A stretch of DNA of 55,990 bases from Girardia tigrina. Its lineage: Eukaryota. The stretch is from positions 6,837 to 62,826 of the forward strand of contig MQRK01231190.1 of the NCBI GenBank assembly GCA_001938485.1. Direction: 5' to 3'. This document shows, one piece after another, positions 37,125 through 40,837 of the stretch. The notes under the pieces were generated by a model. It saw only the letters and a list, made by a program, of their open reading frames with translations. It did not search any database and was not told the origin of the DNA. How positions within the stretch are numbered: the stretch's first letter is position 1; each line of letters begins with the position of its first letter. A program made the position numbers and the translations under genes.

Positions 37125-38237
37125 AAGAGGTGTTCAATTTAGCAAATTGCCATTCAGATAATAATATATCACGAAACGAATTAAATTCTTTTGAGAAAGA
37201 TTTATTTAAGTTCCGGTAGAATTTTGTCACACAAAATACAGTAGTTTAGTTTGATGAAATTCCATGAGATGTTAGAAATGTACATCGTCCCTGAAGATTG
37301 GTCTTTTTAAAAAATTCTTGTCCTCTTTCTGTGTAATCACAATTCAGTAGGCGAATCCTAGTCACTTTCTATGCTCTGCTGACTTAAGTTCTTGTATCAA
37401 CCGAATTCTGTATATAGAGATCTTGTAACAGTATTTGATGCATAGAAATTTTTAACATATTTAGGTGTTGTGATCGATAGAAAAGCGATTTCATTACAGT
37501 ACTACCATGTTTTGTTGTAGTTGCATTTTCTATTTGTAGTTGACTGAGATTCTTTGAATTTCTGTACCAACTCGAAACTGTTTTTGTAGTAAGGACATTG
37601 TTACATGCAAAGATGGAGCGGATATTTGCATATCTTTTCTCATTTTTTGAATGAGTTGTCATAAGAAGAATGCGTTACTTGATACTGGACATTGCGACAA
37701 AATGGAAAAACACTAATAAAATTCTATTCATATGTATAATAAAAAAGAAAATGATGAGAACAATGCTCATCAAATAAAAAAATCCTACGAAATTAAAAAC
37801 TGTGTGATCTTCTCATCCCCTATCAAGGTATTAAGCATGAGGCTTTATAGGAGGACTGAGACGCTTATGGCTTCGAAAAACACTCCGCCTATGTAGGGAT
37901 CTACATACCTAAGCTCCACCGGCGAACCGGCTTCACAAAACCCCTCACTAAGATTAGAAACCTTGGATCATTGCGATGCAGTCCCCCACACGACTGCAGG
38001 GTCACTACTCCATACAGTCTGACACTCCGTTTTATGAAGCTGGGTCTTCAAAGTATTGGTTTGTTAGTCCAATACCGATACATCGGCTGCCGACCTTTCA
38101 AACAGCAAATAGCTCAACTCAGGACGCTTTAGCCTAAAGAAGAAAACTCTAGTTTCTCAGGGATACCACGCGGAGGTACGTCCAATCTTGCCTTGCACAT
38201 AGAGATCACTAAAAAATGTACTTTATGAAACACCCTT
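37125..38237 (-). mobile_element. Highly degenerate rosa/DD41D-like element carrying an insertion
   Basis: TA-AAGGGTGTTTCA terminus at 38237 and weak partner at 37125; minus frames give HQILLQDL, YRIRLIQELKSAEHRK*LGFAY, IFRDDVHF (IFSDEAHF-like). Confidence 0.6.
38122..38210 (-). ncRNA. HDV-like self-cleaving ribozyme, slightly degenerate
   Basis: Minus strand: P1 AGUGAU/AUCCCU (one mismatch), P2 GGACG/CGUCC, P3-L3 ACC-UCCGCGU-GGU, P4 AGAAAC/GUUUUCU, J4/2 GGCUAA containing the catalytic C. Confidence 0.78.
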
Positions 38238-39093
38238 TATATAAACAACATTCTTTTTAAAATGTATATCATAAATAAAGATTATTTAATTTTGTTCATT
38301 TTTATCACTTGTAACATTTTTGACTACAATGATGATATTATATTGATATAATGTTGCAAGCTAATAATAAATAAAACGTGGCTTTTTATGAGGGCATTCA
38401 TTTAAAGTAAAAAAAATCATCAACATTTATATTTTATTATGGAATAATCATAACTGGGAAATTTACCGAAATCTAACATCAAACAATTCTTTATAGTTAA
38501 AAAAATCAAAATTAATTTAATTTTTTCTGGAATTTTTTATACCTGTGTTTACACAGTTCGTTTTTTATTGTTAATTTATGGAGTTTTGAATGTTTGGAGT
38601 TATAAAATAATTTTATATGTGACTTTAGATTATATGTCATAGTTAATGTTAATAGAGTTAATGGAATGAATCTACATTTCGAAATGTCGATAAACGATCT
38701 CAGTTTAAATTAAAGAATATTTACAAAATAATTGATTTGAAATGCTGTGAGACGACTCTCGGAGGATCCTTCACTATTCAATTATTAGTGTTATTTCTGA
38801 ATTTTTAATAATGATTATTCGAAAAAGTGTCCTGATTTTTTCAATAACATTTATTATTATTTTTTAATTTTAAAATATTTATATATTCGTTATAAAATTA
38901 ATCGATTTTTCTTTTTTAACTTTAAAATTATTTTATTTATATTTCCTTTCAAATTCACTATATAAAAATATGTTTAAATGCAATTATATTACGAAAACTT
39001 ACGCGTCTTCTATTAGTTGTACAAATATAAAAGTTCGTTTTTTTACTATTTAAAAAAATTAAAATTTCAAAAAAAGTTTTAATTAAACTTTTA

Positions 39094-39830
39094 TTAACAG
39101 TAACAACCATTATTAACAACAACATTATTTCAATTTATTGGTAATTTCTGGATTCCATCACAAAAGAATTGCGGTTGTTTCGACGCAATCCATTTATCGA
39201 GCCAGTTTCGCACTTATTCGGGTTATGTGAATTTCTGTTCCGCCAATCCGTGAGCCATTGATCGAAATAAGTGATAATCCTATGGATCAATATCAGGAGA
39301 GTACGGGGATTGGGTACGATTTCCCAGTTCAGTTCTTTTATTATATTTATGATCGGTTTTGCAACATGAGGTCTCGCATTGTCGCGAAGCAATATCGAGC
39401 ACTCATGTCTTGTGGTCCATTCCTGTCGTTTGGTGGACAATTCTCAGTTTAGATTGATTAATTGCTCTGCATAACGAGCCGATTTAACAATATAGTCAGG
39501 TTTCAGAAGTTCATAATACAAAATACCTTTCTGATTCCACTATATGTAGAGTAGCACCTTCTTTCCATGGATGTTATGCTTGGAAGTCATATTTGACGCC
39601 TTTCCCTAGGTCTGACTATGATCTCTTTCATTTAGAATTATCGAAATAAATGTACTTTGATCACCAGTGATAATTCGATGCATGAATGATTTGCATTGCT
39701 GTCGATCATGCAAAGGTTCGCTCATCCTTCTTGTCAATTCATGCGGCACCCATTGTACGTTTTTCTGAATTTTTCCCACGTCATGCAAGCGATTTGAAAT
39801 TGTTTGCTTATTCATACCTAATACTTCATA
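39094..39830 (-). pseudogene. mariner (mauritiana-like) transposase remnant
   Basis: QWVPHELT, HRIITGD, GILYYELLKP, LLRDNARPHVAK, YSPDI..DYHLFRSMAHGL. Confidence 0.9.
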
Positions 39831-40837
39831 TCTCTGAAAGTTTTGTGAAAAATCAACAAACTTTGTGTCTGATAATATCGTCAAATCAATGATTTTTTTG
39901 TAAAAGCAAAATTTTTTATTTACGAATTTCTGATTTTATGCTAGAATCTTATTTTCCAATATTCTTTTAGTTCGAATCATTGTTCTCGATTACAATAGGC
40001 CGGACCACATAATCGTGAAATGCTGTGGCGTTTCTCTGCATCTGATCTGCTGGTCTCGGTTGACGTGGAAGAATCCTCACAGACTGATCGACAAGAATGT
40101 CCAGTATGACTCGATCGGGGTTCTATAGAGCTGCTGCTCGCAGAAACAACGGTACAGGACCGGAAATTGGCTTCCCTCGCAAAATCCGCATTATCACTCA
40201 CTCGAACTATCAATTGTGGTTCATGATCAGCATGGTTGCGGCATCGTGAGTCGGTTTCTTTTTGAAATCTGTCAAAATTTATTGTGGAACTTTGGCACAA
40301 TCTTCCCAAGAAACCATAGTTGAGTTTTAATACCATACGTTAAGTTCAACTAAGATATAAGGAATTGTAAAATCGATTATAGCAGAATACAGAAAAATTG
40401 CTCTAATAATAATTTGTAATAATGTGTTTAAAAAAAACTACAGCGCGTCCAACATTATTTAAATAACTAATAAATTGCAATTTGTACAATAATTTAATTT
40501 TTAATTCGAGTTTTTTTTCACTACGGGAAAATTAAATCACCGAAAGTGTGAACGAAAGTGTTTTATTAAATTTGAATATTTATGGAAAGACCGAGAATTT
40601 TTTGATAATTTTGTTGTTTCGTGGTCTAAACTATTGTTAAGTTTTTATTGCTCCACAAAAGTTCTTAAACCCAAGAAAGATTTTGTGATTTATGGTATAA
40701 TCGCATTTTATTTTTATAAACCGTTTTGGCAGTTTATGGTATTTCAAAAATACATTTGTGTGATTTTGGTGTGATTTTGGCTTTACTACAGATCAGTCGA
40801 TTAGTTATGTTGGGTATTCGATAAAATTAACCTTTTA

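Follow-up and report, generated by a model that had tools for sequence, protein, structure and literature searches.

Targeting of ribosomal DNA is known from R2-type elements, which use a restriction-like endonuclease, and from the R1 clade, to which the rDNA elements R6 and RT with their APE endonuclease also belong. R1 itself combines an APE endonuclease and a 28S target with tandem copies and target duplications (PMC1919474), as does the lineage described here, but has two ORFs and a 14-bp duplication. R2 SIDEs are ORF-less, begin with an HDV-like ribozyme, carry a LINE 3' end, reside in 28S genes and show tRNA template jumps at their 5' end, all of which recur in our system, whereas the 28S site is another one, the partner is a single-ORF APE element rather than R1 or R2, the duplication measures 11 bp and there are many dispersed copies.

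Ribozyme-headed, ORF-less LINE derivatives have been described for RTE, Ingi, Vingi and R2 (PMC5786205). The bipartite RTE/Ingi/Vingi derivatives (PMC5786205) as well as NARTc, RIME and SIDER (PMC4035085, PMC3185411) are likewise short, dispersed and ORF-less with a ribozyme at +1, and the L1Tc ribozyme also cleaves at C1 (PMC3185411). In contrast to the bipartite derivatives, we found no LINE matching both the 5' and the 3' part of our element, its structured 3' end is tail-less, and its best target lies in rDNA. RTE-clade LINEs such as Perere-3 (PMC8501958) likewise possess a single APE+RT ORF, a 5' ribozyme and a short 3' UTR; they are described as not site-specific or T-stretch directed (PMC6007223, PMC8501958, PMC13708176), with RTE-1 treated as a dispersed integrator (PMC13708176), and by term count "RTE" is absent from a 2024 review of rDNA transposons (PMC10946416). 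The lineage presented here differs from them by its C-terminal zinc fingers, its own branch (support 99) and its stacking at a 28S site. Among the papers listed by our literature searches, none places an RTE-type element at 28S or joins the 11-mer of this site with the word "retrotransposon". The architecture of a ribozyme-headed short element is already known; the new part would be 28S targeting by an RTE-like lineage.

We analyzed a 55,990-nt stretch of Girardia tigrina DNA (the window). Its minus strand contains what we read, with a probability of about 0.78, as a decayed, protein-less element of ~407 bp that starts with a predicted HDV-like ribozyme and was likely mobilized by an RTE-like lineage of APE/RT LINEs whose best target is a single site in the 28S gene. 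We directly observed fixed ends, target duplications, covariation in the ribozyme, a target signature common to short elements and LINEs, and tandem stacks within 28S. The element and its borders comprise the following features:

37806–38211, minus strand: copy of a short ORF-less retroelement of ~407 nt, sharing 92.4% identity with the majority sequence of the 30 best copies
37861–38121, minus strand: non-coding middle body, colinear with a 28S-resident sister, without tRNA or 5S match
37806–37860, minus strand: 3' tail resembling a LINE 3' UTR, in which a closing stem encloses two small hairpins
38212–38219, minus strand: imperfect target duplication, upstream copy (ACATTTTT)
37795–37805, minus strand: imperfect target duplication, downstream copy (AC-ACAGTTTTT)
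38220–38239, minus strand: upstream target signature of the window copy, with GTG at −14 to −12 and T at −1, which may also be a terminal repeat of the transposon relic hosting the insert

The first-pass annotation had recognized a non-coding insert by its shift in composition, which we could reproduce (GC rising from ~0.20–0.31 to 0.37, no overlapping ORF of ≥100 aa), and had set its 3' end at 37810, which we correct to 37806 (37804 if the final AC is counted). Contig depth in two DNA runs drops sharply at ~37805 and ~38210. The genome search for the family yielded 1,570 first-look candidates, of which 40 were scored, and 39 other places were 85–89% identical with nearly common ends. The resulting majority sequence of 407 nt has stops in all six frames; the 30 best copies are 92–96% identical to it, and all 30 best loci cover 382–408 of 408 bases. 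An anchorable duplication, mostly 11–12 bp long (range 10–13 bp) and starting with AC, flanks 37 of the 44 distinct full-length sites, the seven dropped from this set including the imperfect one of the window. The short element lacks poly(A), its 3' half is common to several sister subfamilies with covarying ribozymes, and 5'-truncated copies exist. Nine partial element contigs occur in run X3, which we only guess to be RNA.

These data bear out the earlier suggestion of a SIDE-like short element, that is, a discrete ORF-less unit inserted repeatedly with target duplications, and support its classification as a non-autonomous non-LTR retroelement. The other option raised at that time, an isolated LINE 5' UTR, was rejected because none of 30 ribozyme-core loci and none of the 30 listed 3'-end loci enters a LINE ORF and because the duplications flank the 407-bp unit. 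LINEs of this genome are themselves headed by HDV-like ribozymes, as a 5' UTR origin would have it, but the fixed 3' end, the duplications around the unit, the lack of any copy entering an ORF among the ribozyme-core loci and the lack of a tRNA or 5S match make it highly improbable that the unit is a stray 5' UTR or that it is a SINE headed by a polymerase III RNA. No polymerase III head of the tRNA, 5S or 7SL kind was identified.

The head of the element folds into the following predicted ribozyme:

38122–38211, minus strand: HDV-like ribozyme with the catalytic C at 38132, expected to cut 5' of 38211
38211–38205, minus strand: P1, 5' strand
38183–38178, minus strand: P2, 5' strand
38177–38175/38167–38165, minus strand: P3
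38174–38168, minus strand: L3
38164–38158, minus strand: P1, 3' strand
38157–38156, minus strand: P1.1
38152–38134, minus strand: P4
38127–38122, minus strand: P2, 3' strand

All elements named in the first-pass annotation could be located in the proposed order on the minus strand between 38211 and 38122, and the element 5' ends coincide with P1. P1, P1.1, P2 and P3 covary across the sister subfamilies, as expected for the proposed fold. Among 12 subfamily representatives 91.3% of the cells were paired, with both-sided changes in 9 of 24 pairs (three in P1, four in P2, one in P3 and one in P1.1, the latter a C-G to U-A swap); none of 500 shuffles reached this level and slid controls were 17–54% paired. 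P1 is misaligned in part, and the rows were selected by hand. As the 12 representatives are related to one another, these figures are to be read as support and not as a probability. The catalytic C in J4/2 is present in 11 of 12 rows and the U-C at the start of L3 is invariant. At the level of sequence comparison, the nested double-pseudoknot HDV-like fold is thereby confirmed as real.

The cleavage site had been placed at 38210. As most copies carry a C one base ahead of AGGGAT, P1 would extend to 7 bp with a C1-G pair, shifting the predicted cut to 38211, where the window copy has a T at +1 in place of the C of the family. From the lesions listed initially, the P1 mismatch (38208) and the loss of a G stand, but P1.1 does not read GA; in the corrected register it is AG instead of GG. 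Both the mismatch and the lost P1.1 G at 38157 depart from the family majority, and the catalytic C (38132) is retained. Based on the +1 C to T change, the P1 mismatch and the lost P1.1 pair, the ribozyme of the window copy is likely weakened or dead. Scoring with covariance models had been suggested as a check of the fold; the relatives gave the covariation described above, whereas the Rfam HDV model did not match the window copy (no match at gathering over the window, three unrelated chance matches). A custom HDV descriptor also missed the window copy, since it requires the P1.1 G, and gave two chance matches in the window and one in three shuffles. Taken as a whole, the window copy did not fold more stably than its shuffled versions (z −0.44).

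We found the 28S connection via locus L061, a LINE located by its endonuclease and flanked by large-subunit rRNA. L061 encodes a single ORF of 1,241 aa with APE, RT and C2H2 domains, and the 28S-resident LINEs are single-ORF APE/RT elements with three zinc-finger-like motifs at the carboxy-terminus. With one APE+RT ORF, no ORF1 and short UTRs, the partner LINE has the architecture of RTE elements; its head is HDV-like and scored 32.9 of 50 bits against the Rfam HDV model, below the gathering score. With 9,372 first-look candidates, of which 150 were scored, this lineage is abundant. In an RT tree (FastTree) of 171 rows, from which pieces of <200 profile positions were excluded except for four own-genome rows and one duplicate was dropped, the own-genome families and P0001–P0004 form a branch with a support of 99. 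This branch is nested in one of 22 rows, apart from DUF6451-bearing RTE-like homologues, one of which is labelled craniofacial development protein 2. From the architecture and the neighbours in this tree, which is without named references, we infer that the lineage is RTE-like. A metagenome scan kept 80 of 459 loci, all of ≤40% identity, with none beside 28S and none matching the HDV descriptor; no metagenome row of the tree fell inside the LINE lineage, rendering the scan uninformative for it.

The tail of the short element aligned locally to the LINE tail of L061 with a score of 64, the best of 2000 shuffles scoring 46. This similarity is partial, and the 5' likeness is limited to the ribozyme core. 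Because the 3' tail, the target signature and the ribozyme type are common to both, the APE/RT LINEs likely mobilize the short element, with the tail hairpins as the predicted recognition signal for the reverse transcriptase. A pattern combining the LINE C-terminal motif with the short tail gave no match to an exact parent LINE, and BLAST of the majority sequence against 30 endonuclease and 20 extended LINE loci retrieved only ribozyme cores or short elements. The genome BLASTN suggested in the first-pass annotation for obtaining a consensus, its ends and duplications and a partner LINE thus delivered the first three together with a likely partner lineage, the exact parent not being found among the loci searched. 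Within the LINEs, the L061-type ORF opens directly after the ribozyme, with no ATG ahead of the endonuclease motif (L130:1802–2100; L054–L056, L058), which hints at a non-AUG or ribozyme-linked initiation.

The 28S site reads GAGGTGTCAGAAAAGTT/ACCACAGGGAT, is continuous in the Rfam consensus (RF02543, model position ~2817), and a composite measure places the R2-type site ~550 bp upstream of it. Assignment to the R2 or R2/R1 SIDEs was rejected on this position, the R1/R2 sites being others. At the dispersed sites (n = 23) we observed GTG at −14 to −12 in 16–17 cases, T at −1 in 18 and AC at +1/+2. A weight matrix built from 18 strictly independent, dispersed non-rDNA sites ranked the 28S site first of 1,526 rRNA positions (14.0 versus 7.0 bits, for a copy with one substitution), and this top rank persisted with the 20 upstream bases alone. 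The intact 28S site scores 16.9 bits, reached by none of 111,920 window positions, 900 of which score as high as the site of the window copy itself. With upstream bases alone, the window likewise contains no equal of the 28S site. Dispersed LINE sites follow the same matrix, with 6 of 7 in its top 1.3%.

Insertions are found at the 28S site. Exact matches to its 5' half (n = 25) include no uninterrupted site: 11 have 28S sequence upstream and all 11 run into non-rRNA sequence, three consist of a remnant of the target with an element behind it, and the other 11 belong to a tandem repeat of 215 bp. At the 3' junction, 14 of 14 matches join an element tail to 28S (two LINEs, one short-family member and 11 long ORF-less elements). 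In locus L289 five copies of the 11-mer separate four tandem elements within one 28S gene, in the order 28S, 267-bp short element, 3.86-kb LINE, 413-bp short element, 1.65-kb element, 28S. Its 413-bp unit (L289:4951–5363) aligns colinearly to the window copy, with 63.8% identity. From the window's own subfamily no full-length copy was seen in 28S, only a truncated tail in L116 (90.6% over 85 nt, the 11-mer on both sides).

In each unit of the AT-rich 215-bp repeat, ~26 bp of the 28S target recur exactly and without an insertion (11 of the 25 matches; L109, L110, L115, L120–L123, L128, L129). An element of 1.65–1.7 kb without a long ORF represents the commonest 3' junction at the 28S site (11/14; L289:5375–7030; L291 (G000:C7972); L108, L114, L118, L124, L126, L127, L245–L258). 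One of its head types looks HDV-like by eye with ~50 extra bases inside L3; another is ordinary, a C-G pair of P1 having changed to G-C. The 267-bp unit of L289 (804–1070) is an internally deleted form, 92.7% identical, of the 413-bp element in the same array, and thus a deletion derivative of a deletion-type element.

Target specificity is nevertheless loose, judged from the insertion sites. The 36 distinct LINE 3' flanks, a set including hand-added rDNA loci, comprise five with the 28S duplication, three with a motif of a nuclease-like gene and 28 others, so that strict rDNA specificity, with nearly all copies at one site, does not apply. In the dispersed duplications bases +3 to +11 mostly differ from 28S. 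The same LINE lineage could be a dispersed, RTE-like one with a motif preference, for which 28S is one good multicopy match among others, the elements being transcribed from their own or host polymerase II promoters. The 28 LINE flanks and all dispersed short-family sites outside rDNA speak for it, a loose insertion signature is known for RTE elements (PMC6007223), and the L1Tc ribozyme overlaps an internal promoter (PMC3185411). Against it, the matrix made from dispersed sites singles out 28S as its best match, several unrelated families are stacked there, and the 5' heptamer of the ribozyme equals the end of the 28S duplication. We regard such a purely dispersed lineage as unlikely and retain 28S as the best target.

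A second hot spot falls within a nuclease-like coding repeat reading Y-x-F-x-C-x-x-C-x-N-S-Y-I-G-E-T (L015:1450–1497 and 14 other loci; uninterrupted copy L010:2042–2548). By its motif this repeat may be of Penelope type; searches of Pfam, PDB and NCBIfam gave no confident match. With 15 of 37 anchored short-element sites in this motif and none in 28S, the main target could be the YIG codon in a nuclease gene of Penelope type, one element parasitizing another, and 28S a secondary one. The 15 sites share one base and involve several subfamilies, and LINE copies insert there as well. On a matrix built without either site, however, the YIG sites score well below 28S (median 7.4 versus 16.9 bits), and their counts are inflated because the host repeat recurs in many loci. 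We consider a main target in the nuclease gene quite improbable, and the 28S gene remains our preferred target.

The window copy resides in sequence that the first-pass annotation had taken as a dead DNA transposon:

37525–37680, minus strand: decayed transposase-like amino-terminal relic (probable host), with two other genomic copies, 81–83% over 69–87 nt

This context held up weakly: a related relic (L164) matches DUF4817 with an E of 0.006, below the cut-off, but the window piece has no match, and no second copy of 38220–38239 as a terminal repeat was found in the window. A dead transposon, presumably of Tc1/mariner type, is a plausible host, and its GGGTGT start would simply supply the target signature. 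A decayed mariner-like transposase upstream (39011–40340, minus strand), recognized from motifs read by eye and with no Pfam match for the pieces tested, was discarded as host, as it ends ~800 bp before the insert. Elsewhere in the window we noted a 169-nt inverted repeat (44082–44250/46435–46603, 98% complementary) enclosing 2.2 kb in which numerous open frames of low complexity overlap, two ORFs between inverted arms built from an 18-bp tandem unit (52898–53006/54751–54961), and a 300-nt direct duplication of 96% identity (6024–6323/6411–6710).

By analogy with R2 and its SIDEs, as described in PMC3414825 and PMC3774820, these observations suggest a cycle of co-transcription, ribozyme release, tail binding and target-primed insertion. 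Source copies in rDNA would be transcribed together with the 28S RNA, and the ribozyme would free the element RNA by cutting at +1. The LINE protein would bind the structured 3' tail and nick the bottom strand at GTG-N10-T/AC, this nick priming reverse transcription, probably aided by the terminal AC, and a second nick 11–12 bp away would give rise to the target duplication. Loose endonuclease specificity would scatter copies to look-alikes such as the window site and the nuclease-gene motif.

Two features concern the 5' end. A tRNA ending in CCA, detected with Rfam, is fused to the element +1 inside the duplication at L141:1259–1328, fitting template jumping at the exact +1; its anticodon reads as that of tRNA-Glu. 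ARAGORN reported no tRNA in six loci, and Rfam found the one in L141 and none in L142. In L142 and L146 a short CCA-ending piece without a tool match precedes +1. The heptamer CAGGGAT at the element's 5' end is identical to the last seven bases of the 28S duplication; L119, L130 and L289 contain it twice, and the first bases of the LINE in L111 merge with the duplication. It was probably captured from the target and could anneal there during second-strand synthesis, a priming role suggested by this match in sequence. Where the ribozyme of R2 elements cuts inside the upstream 28S sequence, RNA 5' bases derived from 28S have likewise been proposed to prime the second strand (PMC3774820), whereas here the heptamer is part of the element and the endonuclease is of the APE type.

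Taken further, an undescribed single-ORF APE (RTE-like) lineage may have independently evolved a preference for a new, conserved 28S site, taken the first strand of its ribozyme from the target, and now support at least three ribozyme-headed, protein-less passengers that breed in rDNA and spill over to look-alikes, an account to which we give even odds. If true, a single-ORF APE lineage with 28S preference would constitute another independent origin of rDNA targeting, directed at a target that is conserved in the Rfam eukaryotic consensus. It would also offer a testable case of specificity loosening, in which the YIG hot spot is probably a look-alike, and show that SIDEs, a rare kind according to PMC3414825, can attain high copy number. 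The short elements would define the minimal ribozyme-plus-tail template for such an enzyme.
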